Below are positions 3,613 through 58,544 of a stretch of DNA of 64,000 bases, piece by piece. Source of the stretch: a virus (taxonomy: Duplodnaviria; Caudoviricetes); the IMG/VR virus record IMGVR_UViG_3300031993_000016; one strand, given 5' to 3'. Under the pieces are notes generated by a model. The model was not told the DNA's origin. It saw only the letters and a list, made by a program, of their open reading frames with translations, and made no database searches. The position numbers were made by a program, and so were the translations under genes. Position 1 is the first letter of the stretch; each line of letters starts with the position of its first letter.

Positions 3613-4226
3613 TAATTATCACCTCGCTTCTGTCCAGTGAAATTAGGATCTTGATCTTCTGCAGCTGTATGATAATTCCCTCGATAATCTACATTTGGTT
3701 TTAAGAAATTGTTAGATTTATCGAATTTCTTCTCAACTTCTTTCTTAGTATATCCTGTAGGTTGTTTCTCATCATATACAGGAATAACCTGAGCCACGAG
3801 GTGATCTGGTGCGGCAATATCATATGTAATTTCTGTAACACGAAACAATCTATCAGGTAATTCACTGTATTGACCAGATATTCTAAACAGACAATCCTTT
3901 TGCATATGTGGCAGATGAAAACTGCAATGAATTAAGAATGGGAGGTTCTGATCATTTTCAACTACCCAACCATATCGCTTAAATGTTTTCACTTTCGGAT
4001 TACCTTCAAAGAATATGTGAGTGTTGATATATTCTGAATAAGAATCTATTACAGTTTCACCTTGAGCATTGGGCTCAGGTTTAAGTGGATACTGATAGAT
4101 AGCTGATATACCTTGAAGCTGCAATGCTTCATCATACCTGTTTCGCATTAATTTTATGTCAGGACCGATAAGATTAACTGCCATCACTATCACCACTTTC
4201 AGCTGCATTTTGAGCAATGATATCAT
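3612..4226 (-). CDS. Putative neck/head-closure protein (probable start MAVNL at 4184)
   Basis: Synteny between portal and tail terminator; beta-rich, RLFRVTEI motif. Confidence 0.4.
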   Translation of the reverse strand: MISLLKMQLKVVIVMAVNLIGPDIKLMRNRYDEALQLQGISAIYQYPLKPEPNAQGETVIDSYSEYINTHIFFEGNPKVKTFKRYGWVVENDQNLPFLIHCSFHLPHMQKDCLFRISGQYSELPDRLFRVTEITYDIAAPDHLVAQVIPVYDEKQPTGYTKKEVEKKFDKSNNFLKPNVDYRGNYHTAAEDQDPNFTGQKRGDN

Positions 4227-46731: not shown

Positions 46732-47349
46732 ATGCGAGCAAAAGAAGCATTAGAACTTTTACAAGTTCATCGTGTTACTCTTAATAGATATGTACGTGAA
46801 GGCGTTATTAGAGTAACAAAATTATCAAATGGTAGATATGAATATAATGATGAAGATGTGCTTAGATTCATAGGTAAGAAGCAAAAAACACATAGTACTA
46901 AAGTAATTTCATATTCAAGAGTATCTACACAATCACAAAAATCACAATTAAAAGAACAAACACAAAGAATTTATGATAGTTGTACTTCAAGAGGTCTTAC
47001 CTTAGATGAACAATATGAAGATATCGGTTCTGGTATGTCATCTGACAGAAAAAACTTTAATAAAATCTGCCAAATGATATTTCACGGTGATGTTGAATTG
47101 TTAATTATTGAAAATAAAGACCGTCTTGTTCGTTTTGGTTTCGATATGCTTGAAAAGTTTTTTAGTTATTTTGGTTGTAAGATACTTGTTTTAAATGACT
47201 CAATAGAAAATAAATCTTATGAACAAGAACTTACAGATGACCTTATATCTGTTATTCATTATTTTACAATGAAATCCTATTCACACAGGCGTAAATTAAA
47301 TAAACTAAGAAGGGAACTAGAGAATGAAACAAAATCTAATAACTCTTAA
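46732..47349 (+). CDS. tnpA: IS607 serine-recombinase transposase
   Basis: N-terminal MerR-like HTH, YSRVST, DIGSG, KDRLVRFGF, ELTDDL. Confidence 0.92.
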   Translation: MRAKEALELLQVHRVTLNRYVREGVIRVTKLSNGRYEYNDEDVLRFIGKKQKTHSTKVISYSRVSTQSQKSQLKEQTQRIYDSCTSRGLTLDEQYEDIGSGMSSDRKNFNKICQMIFHGDVELLIIENKDRLVRFGFDMLEKFFSYFGCKILVLNDSIENKSYEQELTDDLISVIHYFTMKSYSHRRKLNKLRRELENETKSNNS

Positions 47350-48700
47350 AATTAAATATTCTTGTAATACTTCAATTTTAGATGTTATTAGACAGTATAA
47401 TTCTGTACTTAAATTCACTTATAATCGATTAGTAGAGAATTCAAAATTAAAAACTTCTGAAATTACGCAGTTACAGAAAAATCTTAATAATTGTGATTTA
47501 ATAGGGTCTCATTTAAGAAATTCAGCTATATATGATGCAAAATCTTTAGTAGAGCATTCTGATAAACATATTATTTTTGGTGGTAAGTGTCTTTTTAAGC
47601 AAAGATGTCAGCATAAAATAGATAAAGATGAATTTTTGCTTAAACGATTAAGACCAATAAATTCAATAGGTGAAGCAAATCAGAAAGCAAATCGCCTATT
47701 TGATATAGTAAACAATCAAACTATTATGTTTAAGTTGAATAGGCAGCAACACTTTGAATTAAAATTACAACAAGTAGGCACTAAAAGACTCAAAGAACTC
47801 AATAGGCTAATAGAACTGCAAAATAACAAACAAGTTGCAATAACTTATAAATTAGATTTGGATTATGTTTATCTTATTTTTGATTATAACTCATTAAAAA
47901 CTTATGATTATAAAGTTAAATTTAATAGAGTTATGGCAATAGATTTAAATCCAAATAGTATAGGTTGGTCAATTGTTGACTGGTTTGCTGAAAATAAATA
48001 CACTATGATTCAGTCAGGTACTTTTAGTCTTAAACCACTTAATGATTATAGAAATTCTAAATCAGTTGCATCTGATAGTAATTTTCATAAATACATAACA
48101 AATAAGCGTAACTATGAAATTATACATATTGCTAAAGACTTATTTACCTTATGTAGGCATTATCATTGTGAGATATTTTCTATTGAAGACTTAAATATAA
48201 AAGCTTCTGATAAGAAATTAGGTCGTGATTTTAATAGATTAGTAAATAATAATTGGAATAGAAATCTTTTAGTTAACCAAATAAAGAAACATATAAATTC
48301 AAGTTCTACTACTTTAGTAGAAGTACAGCCACAATACAATTCTTATATAGGTAATCTTGTTTTTAGACAAGAACATTTACCAGATGAATGTTTAGCCTCT
48401 ATTGAGATAGGTAGGCGAGGATTTGAATTTGCAACACAGTATATTTTTAGTAGACGATCGCATCAAAAGACAGTTATTTATCCAAAACTAGAGTTAGTTA
48501 AAAATCAACTTACCTTATCGTTGGAAGAATTAGGTATCGATATTCCTAACTTAGAATCTTGGAAAAATATTTTGTCTGCGGTCAAAGAATCGAAAGTGAA
48601 ATATCGGTTCTCTACTTCTGAAGCACAGATTTATCATTCAGAAGGTCTTTTTAGTAAGTTTTATAAATATAAATACTTAAAAATTTATGTATATTTATAA
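47324..48700 (+). CDS. tnpB: TnpB RNA-guided nuclease (Zn-finger-less type)
   Basis: RuvC-I AIDLN, RuvC-II IEDL, then VQPQYNSYIG...PDECLASIEIGRRG without CxxC pairs. Confidence 0.85.
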   Translation: MKQNLITLKIKYSCNTSILDVIRQYNSVLKFTYNRLVENSKLKTSEITQLQKNLNNCDLIGSHLRNSAIYDAKSLVEHSDKHIIFGGKCLFKQRCQHKIDKDEFLLKRLRPINSIGEANQKANRLFDIVNNQTIMFKLNRQQHFELKLQQVGTKRLKELNRLIELQNNKQVAITYKLDLDYVYLIFDYNSLKTYDYKVKFNRVMAIDLNPNSIGWSIVDWFAENKYTMIQSGTFSLKPLNDYRNSKSVASDSNFHKYITNKRNYEIIHIAKDLFTLCRHYHCEIFSIEDLNIKASDKKLGRDFNRLVNNNWNRNLLVNQIKKHINSSSTTLVEVQPQYNSYIGNLVFRQEHLPDECLASIEIGRRGFEFATQYIFSRRSHQKTVIYPKLELVKNQLTLSLEELGIDIPNLESWKNILSAVKESKVKYRFSTSEAQIYHSEGLFSKFYKYKYLKIYVYL

Positions 48701-52888: not shown

Positions 52889-53497
52889 TCATCTAATCAA
52901 CGAATAGAATTCTGACCTTAAGTCCGAATCAGTTTCGAATCTACCTCGAAGTGTAGCCGTTTTAGTTACTGCTTCACGAGCTTTGATACCTCGTCTAGTC
53001 ATACAAGCATGTTTGCCTTTGATAACTACAATTATGTCTTTTGTACCGAGTACTATTTCAATTACATCTGCTATGTCAGAGCCTATTCTTTCTTGCAACT
53101 GCAACCGCTTACCAACCATGTCAGCTATCCTAGCAAGCTTACTAAGTCCAATAACTTTACCGTTTGGAATATAACCTATCGCTACGGACATATCGTACAT
53201 AGTTGCAATGTGATGCTCGCAGGTTGAGAATATTGGAATATCTGTTTCAACAACTAGATCACCTGTGCTAACATCTTCAAAGCATTTATCAAACATATGT
53301 GCAATTTCTTCATTTGAGTAGCACATTCCTTCAAATATCTCTGCACACATCTTAGCAACTCGGTTTGGTGTTTCTTTGAGACCTTCACGATTTGGGTTAT
53401 CTCCGAGCGCTTCTAAAAACTGTGGTACTAATTCTCTAATCTTATCTACGTCTATTTGCTTCATATCATACACCTCTAGCATCCATGCTATACACAT
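52889..53497 (-). CDS. folE: GTP cyclohydrolase I (probable start 53464)
   Basis: [38 protein letters not shown]. Confidence 0.95.
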
Positions 53498-54116
53498 ATT
53501 TATGCAGCTGCAACTGAAACCTCACATCATTTAAATTGTGCTTCATCATGTATTCAACAATCTCCTTCGGCTCTATTCTGCCAAATACAGGGCTTACAAA
53601 TACTTGAGCTCGAGTCAATGCAGATATGCGTTGCATCTCATCTAAATCTTCTTCATTACTTACTACACATTTTAATACGTCAGATCTGTATAGGTGTGTG
53701 AGATTAGATTCTAACATTTTTGAAGTCATACCGCTTGATGGACATTTCCAATCCATAGTAACAGTAACGTTGCCTAAACCTACAACTCCTGATATGTCTA
53801 CAGCACCGCTTGTTTCTATTTCTACATGATAGTTGTTAACAGCAAGTTTCAATATGAGCTGCACAGCATCTTGTTGGATCAAAGGCTCCCCACCCGTAAA
53901 TATAACATATTTACAGTTTAATGCTTCAACCTCTGCAAACACTTCATCTACAGTCATATCTTTGAAATCATCACCCTCAACTGCATACATAGAATCGCAC
54001 CAGCTGCATCGAAGCGGACAAGAAAATGTACGGATAAACACAGCAGGTCTACCAGCTTGAATACTCTCTCCGCTTATTGATTTAAATATCTCGTTTATTA
54101 GCATATAATCTCCCAT
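53466..54116 (-). CDS. queE: 7-carboxy-7-deazaguanine synthase (radical SAM)
   Basis: [33 protein letters not shown]. Confidence 0.95.
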
Positions 54117-54547
54117 TCCTTTCTATAGTTGCATTCGCTATTTTCGGTTTCATGTAATTCAACCTCAACCACGTTAACATCTATAAGACCTAATTCATTG
54201 TGAATATAATCTTCTAATTCATGCAACATAGCTGGCGCTATATTCTCAACGGATGTAGCAAATGGATAAGTTTTATATCTAAGCTCGTACTTGTCAAGTA
54301 CTTTCACAATTTCTTCGCTTATTTCATTTCCTTTAAAATGTAAATACATATGATCCGGCATTACAGCTTTCATAGCATCTTTGAGCAATGTGTAATCCAT
54401 GATCATGCCGAACTCTTTAGGGACGCTAGACGTAACAGTCGCTTTAAAATAATATGAATGCCCGTGCAAGTTACAACAGTGTCCGCTATGATTAGGCAAA
54501 AGATGTGCAGCCTCAAAATATTCTACTCTACTTATTGTTTCCATCAC
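54098..54547 (-). CDS. queD: 6-carboxy-5,6,7,8-tetrahydropterin synthase
   Basis: FEAAH, CCNLHGHSY, DH, ENIA, ETE. Confidence 0.93.
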   Translation of the reverse strand: MMETISRVEYFEAAHLLPNHSGHCCNLHGHSYYFKATVTSSVPKEFGMIMDYTLLKDAMKAVMPDHMYLHFKGNEISEEIVKVLDKYELRYKTYPFATSVENIAPAMLHELEDYIHNELGLIDVNVVEVELHETENSECNYRKEWEIIC

Positions 54548-55284
54548 TACACCTCCGCATATTCTATTCTCTTACAGCCTGACCAATCAACATCAATCTC
54601 ATAATCAATTGGGTCTATCACGCCATTAGCTTTAAATGCAGCAATTCTGTCAAGGCAAGTACCGCACCGCCCGCAGGCACACCCTCTACCATTATAGCAA
54701 CTTGTTGTAAGATGATAAGGTACTTGTAATTCAAGACCCTTCTTAACGACATCTGCTTTATTCCACAGCACAAACGGCGTTGCAACATCTACCTTATTAT
54801 AAGTACCTTCCCAGATTGCCTTTGCAATTGCTTGTGAAAACTCTTTGCTACAATCCGCGTATGCATTACCTGCACTATCATCTGCATGATTACCTAAGAA
54901 CAATGTGATGTCATCCTCCGGATATGTAGATTGTGCAAAAGCAGCAAGTGCTGAAAGCATCAGACCGTTTCTGAATGGTATTGCAGTATCTACACCAGTA
55001 GTTTTACCTGCTAATTGTTCTGCATAAGAACCTTCCGGAACATCTTTATCGCTATGTGCTAAGAGTGAACAGTTACATTTTTCGTATATCTCAGATAAAT
55101 TTAATATTTCATGATTGATTCCATAATAATCTGCAATCTTCTCAGCAGCTTTCAGCTCGCGTGAATGCTTTTGTCCGTACATTACACTGACAGAATTTAC
55201 ATTCTCTTTTCCATAAGAATCAATTGCAATTCCAAGTGCAGTAGTGCTATCAACACCACCACTCGACAATACATATGCTTGCAT
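54547..55284 (-). CDS. queC: 7-cyano-7-deazaguanine synthase
   Basis: SGGVDS, YGQKH, PFRN, YADC, SCY...CGRCGTC..R. Confidence 0.95.
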   Translation of the reverse strand: MQAYVLSSGGVDSTTALGIAIDSYGKENVNSVSVMYGQKHSRELKAAEKIADYYGINHEILNLSEIYEKCNCSLLAHSDKDVPEGSYAEQLAGKTTGVDTAIPFRNGLMLSALAAFAQSTYPEDDITLFLGNHADDSAGNAYADCSKEFSQAIAKAIWEGTYNKVDVATPFVLWNKADVVKKGLELQVPYHLTTSCYNGRGCACGRCGTCLDRIAAFKANGVIDPIDYEIDVDWSGCKRIEYAEV

Positions 55285-55377
55285 ATTATACTAACCTCCT
55301 GTTTTTAAAAAATATAAAAAAAATTATCACATAACTCAAGCTAGGTCAACAGCACTGTCTTGAGGTTGATTACTAAA

Positions 55378-55608
55378 TCAGTTAATCTCTTTGCTTTTAT
55401 CAAAGAAGTGTGTATTATTTGTCATTTTCTTTCGAGTAGCGATTACATCATCGATTTCAATTGTATCTGACGATTCAAACAATGACCGTACTTTAGCATC
55501 TGAAAATTTGTAATGTTGTGTAAACTTAGTTTGGCTAGTAAATACATTGCCATCACTACATGAAATTTCATATCTGAAAGACCATCCAGGACCTCGATAA
55601 TCATTCAA
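55378..55608 (-). CDS. Small hypothetical protein (NUMOD1-like remnant)
   Basis: ISCSDGNVFTSQ pattern. Confidence 0.4.
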   Translation of the reverse strand: MNDYRGPGWSFRYEISCSDGNVFTSQTKFTQHYKFSDAKVRSLFESSDTIEIDDVIATRKKMTNNTHFFDKSKEIN

Positions 55609-55613
55609 TTTGA

Positions 55614-56117
55614 TTAAGATGTTCTAGGCCTGTGTGTAAATGTTTGAGTCATGCATGCTATCTGCATCTGCCGTTTAAGATCCTGATGATTTTCATCTGC
55701 ATATATAGATATAGGTAGCAAACAACAGCCTCCGCGGCTGTTGAAATCACCATATACAGAGAGGTATTGAGGCTCTAACAATTTTACTAAATCATTCATT
55801 ATCATGTGTGTAACTTGTTCGTGAAAAGCACCATGCCTCTGAAAACTATACATATATAATTTCAATGATTTCGATTCAACAGCAAATCTATTTGGGATGT
55901 AAGAAATATGAAAACTTGCTAAATCCGGTTGACCTGTTTTTGGACAACTGCCCACCCATTCAAAGAAATCGATGTTGATGATCTGTTCCTCATGCGCCTG
56001 CTCATCTGCAAACTGAAGTTCAAACCTTTCCAACACATCTGGATCATACTCAAACTTATATTTAGTGTTTTGGTTACCAAGTAATGTTACTCCGCTTAAA
56101 TCTTGTTCTTTGCTCAT
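55614..56117 (-). CDS. queF: NADPH-dependent preQ0 reductase (type I)
   Basis: CPKTGQPD, VESKSLKLY, FHE, RGG. Confidence 0.95.
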   Translation of the reverse strand: MSKEQDLSGVTLLGNQNTKYKFEYDPDVLERFELQFADEQAHEEQIINIDFFEWVGSCPKTGQPDLASFHISYIPNRFAVESKSLKLYMYSFQRHGAFHEQVTHMIMNDLVKLLEPQYLSVYGDFNSRGGCCLLPISIYADENHQDLKRQMQIACMTQTFTHRPRTS

Positions 56118-56163
56118 TGTTTTTTTTTGTTCTCCTTTACATGTGTTTATTGTTGTGAAACAT

Positions 56164-56198
56164 AAAAAGATGTAACCACAGTAATATGGTTACATCTT
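56164..56198 (-). terminator. Terminator in queF leader (riboswitch expression platform)
   Basis: AAGATGTAACCA-N8-TGGTTACATCTT then T run. Confidence 0.8.
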
Positions 56199-56219
56199 CT
56201 ATAACGATTTCTTTCTTGT

Positions 56220-56278
56220 TGTAACCTTGTTATTTTTGTTTATTGCGAGAGGGTGTCAAAGGTTGTTACAAAACTCTC
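56220..56278 (-). promoter_or_regulatory. Variant preQ1-I-like riboswitch aptamer, copy 1 (queF-C-D-E-folE operon)
   Basis: GAGAG-TTTTGTAACAACCTTTGACACC-CTCTC then A-rich tail ending AAGGTTACA. Confidence 0.7.
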
Positions 56279-56298
56279 ATTTTAATTAAGATCGATTA

Positions 56299-56952
56299 TC
56301 ACCAGTGTGACATCTTGAACTGACGTGCTAATTTTGTTATATTACCTGAAAGCATTAACGGCTTGTTTCTATCAATTGAAATCGAACCATCGTCATAAAT
56401 TGTTATATCTGTGACATATATTCGATCTCCTCTAAAATCATAACGATCATATGGAACACGATATGTTCTGCTTGTAGCATTTCGTTTTATCAACTCAATG
56501 TATTTATCGGAATCCTTATAATTAGAGTTGTTTCTAAGTGCTGCAGAAGTAGAAAATGTAGGTATAATCTTATATTCTGCAAGACTGCGAATTATATCAA
56601 CATCTTGAGGATCTATATTTTGAAAATCATTAAGATCAACTTCTTTACGACTCGGTGTTATGTCATCGGAAATTTTAAGACGAATATAAAATGGTGTTTT
56701 AGGTAACAATCTATCTGTCGAGTTGTCTGTGGTAATATCAGACACACCTGGGATATCTATACTCTGTAGATATGCAAAATCATCATCTCGAATCTTATCT
56801 GATACATATGCAAGTCTCATACCTTTAGTAAGTTGTGATATCTTATCATAATTAAGTTCTCGTTTGTGCTTCATGCTGAATATTAGATTCTTTATATCAT
56901 CATATGCTATGCGACCATCCTCTGATGAATCGCTTTTAATGTATATTTTCAT
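56299..56952 (-). CDS. MKIYIKS-leader protein
   Basis: 217 aa, AAGGTG RBS. Confidence 0.65.
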   Translation of the reverse strand: MKIYIKSDSSEDGRIAYDDIKNLIFSMKHKRELNYDKISQLTKGMRLAYVSDKIRDDDFAYLQSIDIPGVSDITTDNSTDRLLPKTPFYIRLKISDDITPSRKEVDLNDFQNIDPQDVDIIRSLAEYKIIPTFSTSAALRNNSNYKDSDKYIELIKRNATSRTYRVPYDRYDFRGDRIYVTDITIYDDGSISIDRNKPLMLSGNITKLARQFKMSHW

Positions 56953-57016
56953 CTTTCACCTTCAAGTTATGTTAAGTTACTACAAAACTCTCGCTTATGA
57001 TATTGAACTATGTGAT

Positions 57017-57382
57017 TCAACTACGTCTACGTTTTGATGGTGCATCACGTCTAAGATACAGATTCCTACTGTAGTCAGCTGGTGTAAGTTGATTGTAATA
57101 TTCCAGCATGAATTCACGATCAGCGTCTTGAATCCTGACACCACGTAAATCATTATTTAAAGTTTCAATCATATCGATTACATATTCATCAAAGTATTCA
57201 TGTCGGTGATCATATACAAATTTTGGATAATCTAGTTCGTCTGATGCAATAAAATCTTTTATGATATCTTTATTAAAATCATTTCTAAAATACTTTGTAT
57301 ATACAAGTCTGTTTACTAATTTACGTAATTCTATTAATTTAGTAGTAGACATTGTATAATCGCTTTTAATATATCTTTTCAT
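57017..57382 (-). CDS. MKRYIKS-leader protein
   Basis: AAGGAG RBS; promoter motifs at 57431 and 57450. Confidence 0.65.
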   Translation of the reverse strand: MKRYIKSDYTMSTTKLIELRKLVNRLVYTKYFRNDFNKDIIKDFIASDELDYPKFVYDHRHEYFDEYVIDMIETLNNDLRGVRIQDADREFMLEYYNQLTPADYSRNLYLRRDAPSKRRRS

Positions 57383-57461
57383 AATTCATCTATCTCCTTT
57401 TTTTTTCAAAAGGTTGTTATCACCTAACTATATTAAAGGTTACATGAGATATAACGAAATT

Positions 57462-57493
57462 AAGGAGCAGACTCTTTGATGAATCTGCTCCTT
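57462..57493 (-). terminator. Terminator after yhhQ
   Basis: AAGGAGCAGA...TCTGCTCCTT inverted repeat. Confidence 0.7.
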
Positions 57494-57569
57494 TGATGAT
57501 TCTATTTTTCTTACAACTTTCCTGCATACTGTGCTGCAATATGAGTTGTCAAGATATAAATATTAAGTT

Positions 57570-58307
57570 TTATGCTACAATTTTATACTTTTCGAGATAG
57601 CTTGCGCCCACGTTGTCGTTCTTCCAAGACTTTGACATCTTATAACTGATAGGTGAGAATATCATCTCAAATGCAAGTTCTACAAGCATCATCATAAATG
57701 AACATACAAGTACCTGCTTAATTGTCCATCCAAAGAATATGTAAGATACAAATAATGCAAATACAATGTTATCTACAAACTGACCAAGTGCTGTTGAAGC
57801 AAAACTTCTTATAGCAAATCCACCGTAATTATCATTTTTATCTACTTTAGCACCTACTAGCTTATTCACGATTGAGTTAATTAATCCACCGAGAAACATT
57901 GCAAGTGCAGAACCGATGATTATGAACCAAGTTGATGCAAATGTTGAGTCAAGTGCTGTATTAATTTCAGTTGCAACTTCTGGGCTGGATGCGGAATAGC
58001 TTGGCGCCCATACACCTGGGATCTTCACAATTATAGCATAAAGTAGTGTGGTGAGAAGTGTTACAATCATTGCAACCGTATTGAGTATAGTTGCAGTCTT
58101 GGCTCCAAATCTTTTGCAAACCGCATCTAAGCATAAGAATGAGATCCAGCTAACAAATATACCTGCCGTTGAAGCAAGCCAAGGTAAATTGAATATTGAC
58201 TTATTTGCTAACAGATTCATCGATACTACTGACAATATAAATAATGCTGTTACAATTCCAGGAATCGCTCTTAATGCGTCTTTTGTTTGTTCAATTAACT
58301 TTTTCAT
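57570..58307 (-). CDS. yhhQ: Queuosine precursor transporter (YhhQ/VUT family)
   Basis: Multi-pass membrane protein; NLLANK, FLCLD....FG, R...ST..GQFVDN..F. Confidence 0.88.
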   Translation of the reverse strand: MKKLIEQTKDALRAIPGIVTALFILSVVSMNLLANKSIFNLPWLASTAGIFVSWISFLCLDAVCKRFGAKTATILNTVAMIVTLLTTLLYAIIVKIPGVWAPSYSASSPEVATEINTALDSTFASTWFIIIGSALAMFLGGLINSIVNKLVGAKVDKNDNYGGFAIRSFASTALGQFVDNIVFALFVSYIFFGWTIKQVLVCSFMMMLVELAFEMIFSPISYKMSKSWKNDNVGASYLEKYKIVA

Positions 58308-58352
58308 TTAATTGTCCTCCAATTCATATTAATTAGAGAGCACATAATAATG

Positions 58353-58457
58353 CCCTCGAATCTGTGTTGTTGAGTTAGTTATCTTTGGCGAGATGTAATT
58401 TTCGTCATATTGATGATGAATTAGTCCATCGGCGGACTCAAACATGAGATTCGAGGG
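58353..58457 (-). other. Multi-branched RNA structure in yhhQ leader
   Basis: CCCTCGAATCT/AGATTCGAGGG outer stem, TTGAGT/ACTCAA, three short internal hairpins. Confidence 0.5.
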
Positions 58458-58477
58458 ATCTTTAAGATCTTATTCAT
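58421..58477 (-). CDS. 18-aa leader ORF MNKILKIPRISCLSPPMD (not in ORF track)
   Basis: AAGGAGGT Shine-Dalgarno 58487-58494 just upstream of ATG at 58477. Confidence 0.5.
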   Translation of the reverse strand: MNKILKIPRISCLSPPMD

Positions 58478-58485
58478 ATGTTTTG

Positions 58486-58544
58486 TACCTCCTTATTTTT
58501 CTTATTTTGAGACCAGGCTGTCAGAGTAGTTACAAAACTGGTCT
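58486..58544 (-). promoter_or_regulatory. Variant preQ1-I-like riboswitch aptamer, copy 2 (yhhQ leader)
   Basis: AGACCAG-TTTTGTAACTACTCTGACAGC-CTGGTCT then A-rich tail ending AAGGAGGTA. Confidence 0.7.

Follow-up and report, generated by a model that had tools for sequence, protein, structure and literature searches.

The 64,000-nt stretch analysed here (hereafter the window), from the Caudoviricetes record IMGVR_UViG_3300031993_000016, carries on its minus strand two copies of a structured leader RNA, one ahead of yhhQ, a gene for a queuosine-precursor transporter, and one ahead of queF, a gene for preQ1 synthase. With a probability of about 0.8, both elements are OFF riboswitches and represent an uncatalogued, phage-borne offshoot of the class I preQ1 riboswitch. 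The direction of switching (OFF) and the ligand are what we infer; structure, conservation and gene association were read from sequences. The RNA family of conserved structure to which the two copies belong is real, as judged from these sequences, and is a well-supported riboswitch candidate; it most likely acts like a class I preQ1 riboswitch, yet it is stretched and absent from Rfam. Phages place 7-deazaguanine bases in their DNA to evade restriction, and to the best of our knowledge few metabolite riboswitches have been reported in phages. The family would imply that phages feedback-control the supply of 7-deazaguanines themselves, and not via host riboswitches.

Copy 1 (56220..56279, minus strand) was matched at 58.0 bits (E 6e-9) by a covariance model built from 24 relatives with the window copies left out, and was delimited by its sequence, this match and covariation in the family. 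Its stem P1 (GAGAG/CUCUC; 5' strand 56279-56274, 3' strand 56251-56246) encloses loop L1 (UUUUGUAAC, 56273-56265), the 5' strand of P2 (AACCUU, 56264-56259) and loop L2 (UGACACC, 56258-52), and is followed by an A-rich tail (56245-56229) and by AAGGUU (56228-56223), which is complementary to the first P2 strand. Copy 2 (58486..58544, minus strand; 48.6 bits, E 6e-7), whose P1 was predicted by folding, consists of P1 AGACCAG/CUGGUCU (58544-58538 and 58516-58510), L1 UUUUGUAAC (58537-58529), the P2 5' strand UACUCU (58528-58523), L2 (U)GACAGC ending at 58517, a tail (58509-58494) and AGGAGG (58493-58488), which is both the P2 3' strand and a Shine-Dalgarno sequence (SD). The original prediction, made from the window sequence alone, had placed the elements at 56278-56220 and 58544-58486 of the minus strand, and these coordinates and the accompanying sequences proved exact on re-reading. 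The model, trained on the leaders of other phages, gave exactly two matches in the 64-kb window, both at these sites. The loop closed by P1 measures 22 nt in copy 1 and 21 nt in copy 2, and 18-23 nt in the family (18 nt in Streptococcus phage Dp-1), which agrees with the predicted doubling of the class I length.

The relatives were collected starting from loci fetched solely by similarity to the YhhQ and QueF proteins of the window. In these loci the element lies just 5' of the gene and keeps its unpaired motifs, with wholly different stems (CGAGGG/CCCUCG, GCCGAG/CUCGGC, AGACGG/CCGUCU, AGAGUG/CACUCU and AAGUG/CACUU). The first two DNA patterns derived for wider searches returned mostly chance matches, and a tighter pattern with a stem filter was used instead. 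This specific pattern found 75 IMG/VR loci, 43 matches in 185,579 species genomes and at least 118 metagenome contigs; the stem filter left at least 104 distinct sequences from phage and metagenome contigs, and the 104 listed contain 30 different P1 strands, with stems of 4-9 bp and loops of 19-23 nt. In a model-based alignment of 59 distinct rows, P1 is 92.2% paired, compared with 56.9% after shuffling and 36-59% in slid registers; there are 133 double-change cells, six of the seven pairs covary, and a G-C pair closes P1 in 57 of the 59 rows. The proposal that the two stems pair in spite of their different sequences is supported by the related sequences.

P2 can form in nearly all members, and compensating forms are found: AACCUU/AAGGUU and AACCU/AGGUU in the queF type, GCCU/AGGC (L391, L437), CUCAU/AUGAG (L129) and CUACU/AGUAG (L284). 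In most members the P2 3' strand is the SD (UCCU/AGGA, UUCCUU/AAGGAG), and SD-type pairing taken by itself would be weak evidence for a pseudoknot. Over 76 distinct loop/tail combinations, the P2 energy of the true partners was -4.50 kcal/mol, compared with -4.11 +/- 0.10 for permuted partners; the value of the true partners was reached by 1 of 5000 permutations of what are, it should be noted, related sequences. The predicted H-type pseudoknot is supported, both the stem P1 and the loop-tail pairing P2 showing covariation.

In the fold proposed for the family P1 has 5-9 bp, L1 is UUUUGUA plus 1-3 nt (8-10 nt in all), L2 is UGAMANC, its C adjoining P1, and the tail is A-rich, running into A[C/U]AAAAAUAA and then the P2 3' strand. 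Every member, those selected by protein included, has the specificity C and the AAAAAUAA tail. Sub-variants combine UUAUGUA with UGACGUC or UGACAUC, UUUCGUA with UAAAACC, and UUCGUAUGA with GUCGAACUC (L120:3918-3983, L121:~3905-3985, L490, L494, L524 and L481); all of them retain the GUA of L1, and in IMG/VR UGACGUC was found with UUAUGUA and never with UUUUGUA. Because L1 and L2 change jointly in the sub-variants, the extra nucleotides are probably part of the tertiary core. Three further pairings were considered. A complement between L1 and the tail (UUUUGU with A[C/U]AAAA) exists in most members, L1 being too invariant for a test, and was not adopted, as it fails in copy 2 and in L123 and crosses P2; an extension of P1 by UGU/ACA was rejected, since 41% of members have A in place of the C; and a pairing of the copy 2 L1 with downstream sequence (GUUUUGUA with UACAAAAC) is not kept by relatives. 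As for unusual arrangements, L284 (4254-4563) carries two tandem aptamers about 260 nt apart before one yhhQ, and in L242 (8872-8935) and L340 a small hairpin is inserted within the A-rich tail.

The association with genes was examined independently of the pattern in 80 phage yhhQ loci chosen by protein profile alone. A strong model match lies directly 5' of yhhQ on the coding strand in 47 of them, with a weak match in four more, and the sole further model matches in the 80 loci precede a neighbouring queF. By Pfam, 35 of 49 downstream proteins are Vut_1 and 13 are QueF. In the expanded set, among the matches listed, 62 of the 100 elements with a readable downstream ORF (open reading frame) precede YhhQ and 29 precede QueF; the other nine ORFs include three that are divergent and YhhQ-like and three short-chain dehydrogenases (SDRs), and four members stop at the contig edge. 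The anticipated enrichment of homologues before que and yhhQ genes thus takes the form of a near-exclusive association with yhhQ and queF.

This association also bears on the idea that the element could be a protein-binding leader, recognized by a translational regulator of phage or host, or a pseudoknot that adjusts translation independently of any ligand, with no metabolite sensing in either case. In favour of this idea, the unpaired loops are highly conserved, and the A-rich tail is a possible protein site. However, the element is linked almost exclusively to two non-homologous genes of one pathway, across phages whose yhhQ proteins are no more than 35-76% identical; it matches a known metabolite aptamer feature by feature; and it is joined to two expression platforms, SD masking and a terminator, as is typical of riboswitches. 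This explanation therefore appears very improbable. An even poorer candidate, which we reject, is a DNA element made up of a sigma-70-type promoter (TTGACA, 16-18 nt, AAAAAT) and a flanking inverted-repeat operator. A consensus scan does list TTGACA-16-AAAAAT in copy 1 and CTGACA-18-AAAAAT in copy 2, but promoter-like sites are not enriched (21 against 19.0 in shuffles), the spacing from TGAMA to AAAAAUAA differs between members (about 14 to 31 nt), and TGAAA is found in 41% of them. The inverted repeat keeps its pairing while its sequence varies, which argues for RNA and not for a protein operator; the SD comes only 0-3 nt further on, so that a transcript started from such a promoter would be devoid of it; and in Dp-1 the annotated promoter sits upstream of the element.

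Rfam 15 gave no match at the gathering threshold across the whole window, its preQ1 families gave none at E<=10 in the 2.9 kb round the elements or in a 91-nt slice at copy 1, and no gathering-level match was obtained in 146 kb from 18 related loci holding more than 20 copies. The suggestion of an undescribed subtype is consistent with this failure of the Rfam preQ1 models in both the window and the related loci. Full-text literature searches yielded no publication that describes a preQ0 riboswitch, a phage variant of the preQ1 riboswitch or a fourth preQ1 class, and the word riboswitch is absent from the two main papers on phage 7-deazaguanine DNA. With preQ1-I (RF00522) the family shares the H-type pseudoknot, the G-C floor, the specificity C, the A-rich L3 and the gene context, and it departs from it in model score, in size and L1 length and in the base before the specificity C. 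As to preQ1-II (RF01054) and preQ1-III (RF02680), neither model matched, and the topology here is a simple H-type, not HLout with an embedded hairpin.

The minimal class I aptamer has about 34 nt and an L1 of 2-3 nt. Past its A-rich L3 comes the P2 3' strand, itself a component of the expression platform, and the specificity C is preceded by U in type I and by A in types II and III (PMC11625349). Like preQ1-I type II (B. subtilis queC, T. tengcongensis), the phage elements are H-type pseudoknots with a G-C pair atop P1, a C by the P1 3' strand, an L2 of the form ..ACAxC, an A-rich L3 and a position 5' of que genes. The type II P2 3' strand doubles as antiterminator in B. subtilis or as SD in T. 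tengcongensis, and it does likewise here, copy 1 resembling the transcriptional design of the B. subtilis queC switch. Unlike type II, the whole aptamer spans 52-62 nt and not about 34, L1 is UUUUGUA plus 1-3 nt instead of 2-3 nt, L2 has an additional conserved UGA, and C, G or U replaces A before the specificity C. With type III, represented by the E. coli yhhQ leader (PDB 8fza; PMC10622847), and with type I, represented by Carnobacterium antarcticum (PMC8752633), the family has in common the UU after the P1 5' strand, the regulation of yhhQ and the burial of the SD in P2. Types I and III, however, are small, stringent bacterial forms, whereas the phage family has a long L1 and occurs almost only on phage or phage-like contigs.

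Given these likenesses, one might take the elements for ordinary preQ1-I riboswitches missed by the Rfam model, with the same pocket and no novelty other than loop length. The topology is indeed the same, as are the UU, the G-C floor, the specificity C, the A-rich tail and the gene context, and at gathering Rfam also misses a range of class-I-like pseudoknots with 11-16 nt loops in other phage yhhQ leaders. Against this stand the absence of any RF00522 match at E=10 in the 91-nt search and at gathering in the 18 related loci, an L1 of 8-10 nt with a conserved GUA as opposed to 2-3 nt, the conserved UGAMA of L2, and the joint change of L1 and L2 in the sub-variants, which points to extra tertiary structure. 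We consider this explanation improbable, though less so than a protein-binding leader. The other class-I-like pseudoknots are short, are often found where a phage yhhQ leader is without the motif, and in some cases have UUC...UC (L506/L509, L478, L493, L488, L541, L543 and, 110 nt before yhhQ, L503); Rfam reported none of them at gathering. Their existence suggests that the present family is the largest branch of a wider phage radiation. As an extension of the smallest known riboswitch fold by a conserved 6-7 nt insertion, the family would be a natural experiment on how a class I pocket can be rebuilt.

The two copies appear to be coupled to their genes in different ways. Downstream of copy 1 and 5' of queF lies an intrinsic terminator (56160..56200, minus strand), a 16-bp hairpin followed by a U run, of which there are equivalents in six relatives. 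An alternative antiterminator (56188..56228, minus strand) can form between GGUUACA (56226-56220) and UGUAACC (56194-56188), a segment of the terminator 5' arm (-9.7 kcal/mol), and since it uses the tail segment of P2, antiterminator and P2 are mutually exclusive. The truncated copy 1 transcript folds as P1 plus the antiterminator helix. All seven of seven queF-type leaders can form both P2 (-3.6 to -6.3 kcal/mol) and an antiterminator of 7-9 bp (-6.7 to -13.1 kcal/mol), with compensating changes; where P2 has changed to GCCU/AGGC, the terminator arm has changed to match. The antiterminator role attributed to copy 1 in the original prediction is strengthened by this conservation of both alternatives. 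By analogy with class I, binding of a 7-deazaguanine base, most likely preQ1, would lock P2; the tail would then be withdrawn from the antiterminator, the terminator would form, and read-through into queF-queC-queD-queE-folE would stop. QueF (56117-55614, minus strand) scores as a true preQ1 synthase (NCBIfam TIGR03139, 118.9 bits against a cut-off of 86.9), so that repression by its product, preQ1, would be the simplest logic.

Between aptamer 1 and the terminator, overlapping the start of the 5' arm, lies the promoter-like motif TCGTTATA (56200..56207, minus strand). It occurs 14 times in the window compared with 2.9 expected, 12 of the 14 on the coding strand; the sites, often in the form AAATCGTTATAG, are mostly intergenic, 20-60 nt before an SD and ATG and often just past terminators (for example 56207-56200, 57457-57450, 52875-52868 and 29064-29057, all on the minus strand). 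It is also enriched in related loci, related queF leaders retain it at the site between aptamer and terminator, and it is probably a promoter element of this phage clade. If so, its transcripts would be without the aptamer and maybe without part of the terminator 5' arm, and the riboswitch would govern only read-through from upstream.

Copy 2 had been described as ending in the SD. AGGAGG is present, but it serves an 18-codon leader ORF (58421..58477, minus strand, ATG at 58477) and not yhhQ, the start of which (58307) lies 113 nt beyond the stop of the leader ORF. A locked P2 would mask the SD of this leader ORF, and with the ORF untranslated yhhQ would be kept off by downstream RNA structure. 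Codons 8-11 of the leader ORF make up the 5' side of a long-range stem of 11 bp, the partner of which lies at about 58360-58350, and yhhQ has its own SD, located by folding within a small hairpin. In most yhhQ-type leaders the gene's own SD is the P2 3' strand, 5-10 nt upstream of the ATG. About ten other members have leader ORFs of 9-19 codons: in L123, L248/L451, L420, L428 and L382 the end of the ORF falls in the 5' arm of a hairpin with a U run behind it, and in L328 the ORF overlaps the SD of the next gene; L452 has an equivalent long-range stem of different sequence, and L435, a close relative, keeps the leader ORF. From its sequence features this arrangement looks like a riboswitch-to-leader-peptide relay. 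It is similar to leader-peptide attenuators in the masked SD of a 9-19 codon ORF that ends in a terminator arm or a long-range stem (copy 2 and about ten relatives), and dissimilar in that the aptamer, and not the supply of charged tRNA, would gate translation of the leader.

Several observations weigh against the interpretation of the two elements as OFF riboswitches of preQ1-I descent. The pseudoknot pairing proposed for copy 2 is supported across the family, but in copy 2 itself P2 amounts to only about 4 bp (CUCU/GGAG) and is longer only with a bulge, and in some members it is just 2-3 bp. Folding of the isolated aptamers gave no better result than folding of shuffled sequence; a pseudoknot is expected to behave in this way, but the comparison is uninformative. 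The invariance of UUUUGUA, UGAMANCC and AAAAAUAA is partly circular because the collection scans demanded these motifs; in the protein-selected set all three are exact in 39 of 47 members and present in variant forms in eight. The base before the specificity C is C in 59, G in 25, U in 17 and A in 1 of the 102 members listed, unlike the class I types, and the pocket may therefore differ. Since TCGTTATA is promoter-like, part of queF transcription may bypass the switch, and the proposed route from copy 2 to yhhQ passes through leader translation that would open an RNA structure. Finally, four near-complete relatives of 144-176 kb (G001-G004, the contigs of L126, L124, L125 and L129) have the riboswitch with yhhQ, and in these four no QueF, QueC or Pfam-TGT was found, yhhQ often having an amidase gene behind it instead, which makes the identity of the ligand less certain.

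preQ1 is the most likely candidate ligand, preQ0 or another 7-deazaguanine being possible. The same fold and OFF logic could thus serve a ligand such as preQ0, CDG (7-carboxy-7-deazaguanine), ADG (7-amido-7-deazaguanine), N-acylated preQ1 or stacked ligands in an enlarged pocket, a view that we regard as unlikely, though the most probable of the rival explanations. It would account for a loop about twice as long as that of class I and for a base before the specificity C that is almost never A, unlike types II and III (PMC11625349), and the near-complete relatives that hold riboswitch and yhhQ without queF or queC agree with it. YhhQ is a preQ0 transporter (PMC5372724), and binding of two ligands is already known from class I type I, where in Carnobacterium antarcticum they are stacked (PMC8752633). 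On the other hand, queF, the product of which is preQ1, is the second commonest regulated gene (29/100 among the matches listed), and for preQ0 in particular a substrate repressing its own consuming enzyme would be an odd logic. The hallmarks of the class I pocket are kept, namely UU after the P1 5' strand, G-C atop P1, C before the P1 3' strand and the A-rich L3, and Dp-1 DNA carries dPreQ1.

Genes beside the riboswitch hint at precursors other than free preQ1. In 18 of 64 loci (e.g. L126:4742-6214) the gene immediately behind riboswitch-controlled yhhQ encodes a 490-aa amidase-signature protein (PF01425), in lineages whose yhhQ are only 35-76% identical; yhhQ is followed by an SDR in L332:5651-6373, L307:5297-5986, L388 and L457; and the riboswitch, yhhQ and amidase of L323 have as neighbours a dCTP deaminase-like gene and a formyltransferase-domain protein. 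The amidase is a candidate for a 7-deazaguanine salvage or modification step, and amidase and SDR together, by their place in riboswitch-controlled operons, are candidates for further salvage steps. An amidase of the same length and signature (490 aa, PF01425; 48752-50224, minus strand) is encoded in the window near the que cluster. It is conceivable, with the same low probability as the change of ligand just discussed, that the family is a new class with an enlarged L1/L2 pocket for a 7-deazaguanine other than free preQ1 (preQ0, N-acylated preQ1 or stacked bases). In that case N-acylated preQ1 would be released by the co-transcribed amidase, phages would meter the supply of their DNA-modification precursor, and some members would relay the signal via a leader peptide whose translation breaks a terminator.

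The preferred reading, a preQ1-I offshoot most likely sensing preQ1, can be related to DNA modification through Dp-1, a cultured pneumococcal phage. The model matches the Dp-1 genome at 75-131 (40.6 bits, E 3e-7), 8 nt past an annotated -10 box, and the operon behind the element encodes gp1 (QueF), QueC, QueD, QueE, FolE, QueT and a TGT/DpdA-type transglycosylase. Dp-1 DNA contains dPreQ1 (PMC6884629). Searched with the Rfam class I preQ1 model, the opening 5 kb of the Dp-1 record gave no match at E<=1, and its first 9 kb carry no riboswitch annotation. No DpdA/TGT was identified in the window when candidate ORFs were compared by sequence with Pfam, PHROGs, NCBIfam and PDB, an atlas look-up of the candidates was without a usable match, and the single-sequence fold of a 305-aa ORF was too poor for use (predicted local distance difference test, pLDDT, 46.9). 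A possible role in DNA modification in the present phage rests on the homologous Dp-1 leader, because the Dp-1 operon has the TGT/DpdA-type gene and its DNA has dPreQ1. As Dp-1 is cultured and its DNA modification has been measured, the idea is directly testable.

The family appears confined to phages and plentiful in gut and rumen viromes. Of the 43 matches to the pattern in species genomes, only 4 are real (62-74 bits), and these lie on metagenome-assembled genome (MAG) contigs of 20-142 kb, where the neighbouring genes are phage-like, for example an HNH nuclease and a QueF that bears an intein. Among isolated phages, a DNA similarity search with the region gave weak queF matches alone and tblastn with yhhQ gave no match; the region near queF gave no model match in Bacillus phage Flasso, Staphylococcus phage SA 1306 Kay and three faecal phage scaffolds. 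In two loci the QueF gene is split by an HNH-domain intein (L243:574-2085, L332:4117-5661).

In the window, the minus-strand gene order opens with a 72-aa ORF 5' of aptamer copy 2, followed by yhhQ (57570..58307; Vut_1 family, Pfam PF02592, 72.1 bits), a terminator 3' of it, and two small ORFs with the starts MKRYIK and MKIYIK, which lie between this terminator and aptamer copy 1. The operon downstream of copy 1 (52889..56117, minus strand) comprises queF, a 76-aa ORF, queC, queD, queE and folE, with Pfam matches in the region to QueF, Vut_1/YhhQ, QueC, PTPS/QueD, radical-SAM QueE and GTP cyclohydrolase I. The shared word TTTTGTA(R)(Y)(W)AC occurs three times in the window compared with 0.23 expected. 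A partial third copy, GAGAGUUUUGUAGUAAC (56976..56992, minus strand), precedes a 217-aa ORF; it is identical over 12 nt to the start of aptamer 1 (GAGAGUUUUGUA) and is without a 3' P1 strand and a tail, and neither a covariance model match nor structure above shuffles was found for it. In relatives yhhQ and queF are adjacent, and a duplication or insertion between the two has probably left the partial copy behind as a relic. The remaining genes of the window are of phage type (DNA polymerase, clamp loader, DnaB-like helicase, primase and HNH nucleases), and a plus-strand ORF amid the minus-strand gene array (47324-48700) has weak matches of TnpB type (IS200/IS605 accessory).

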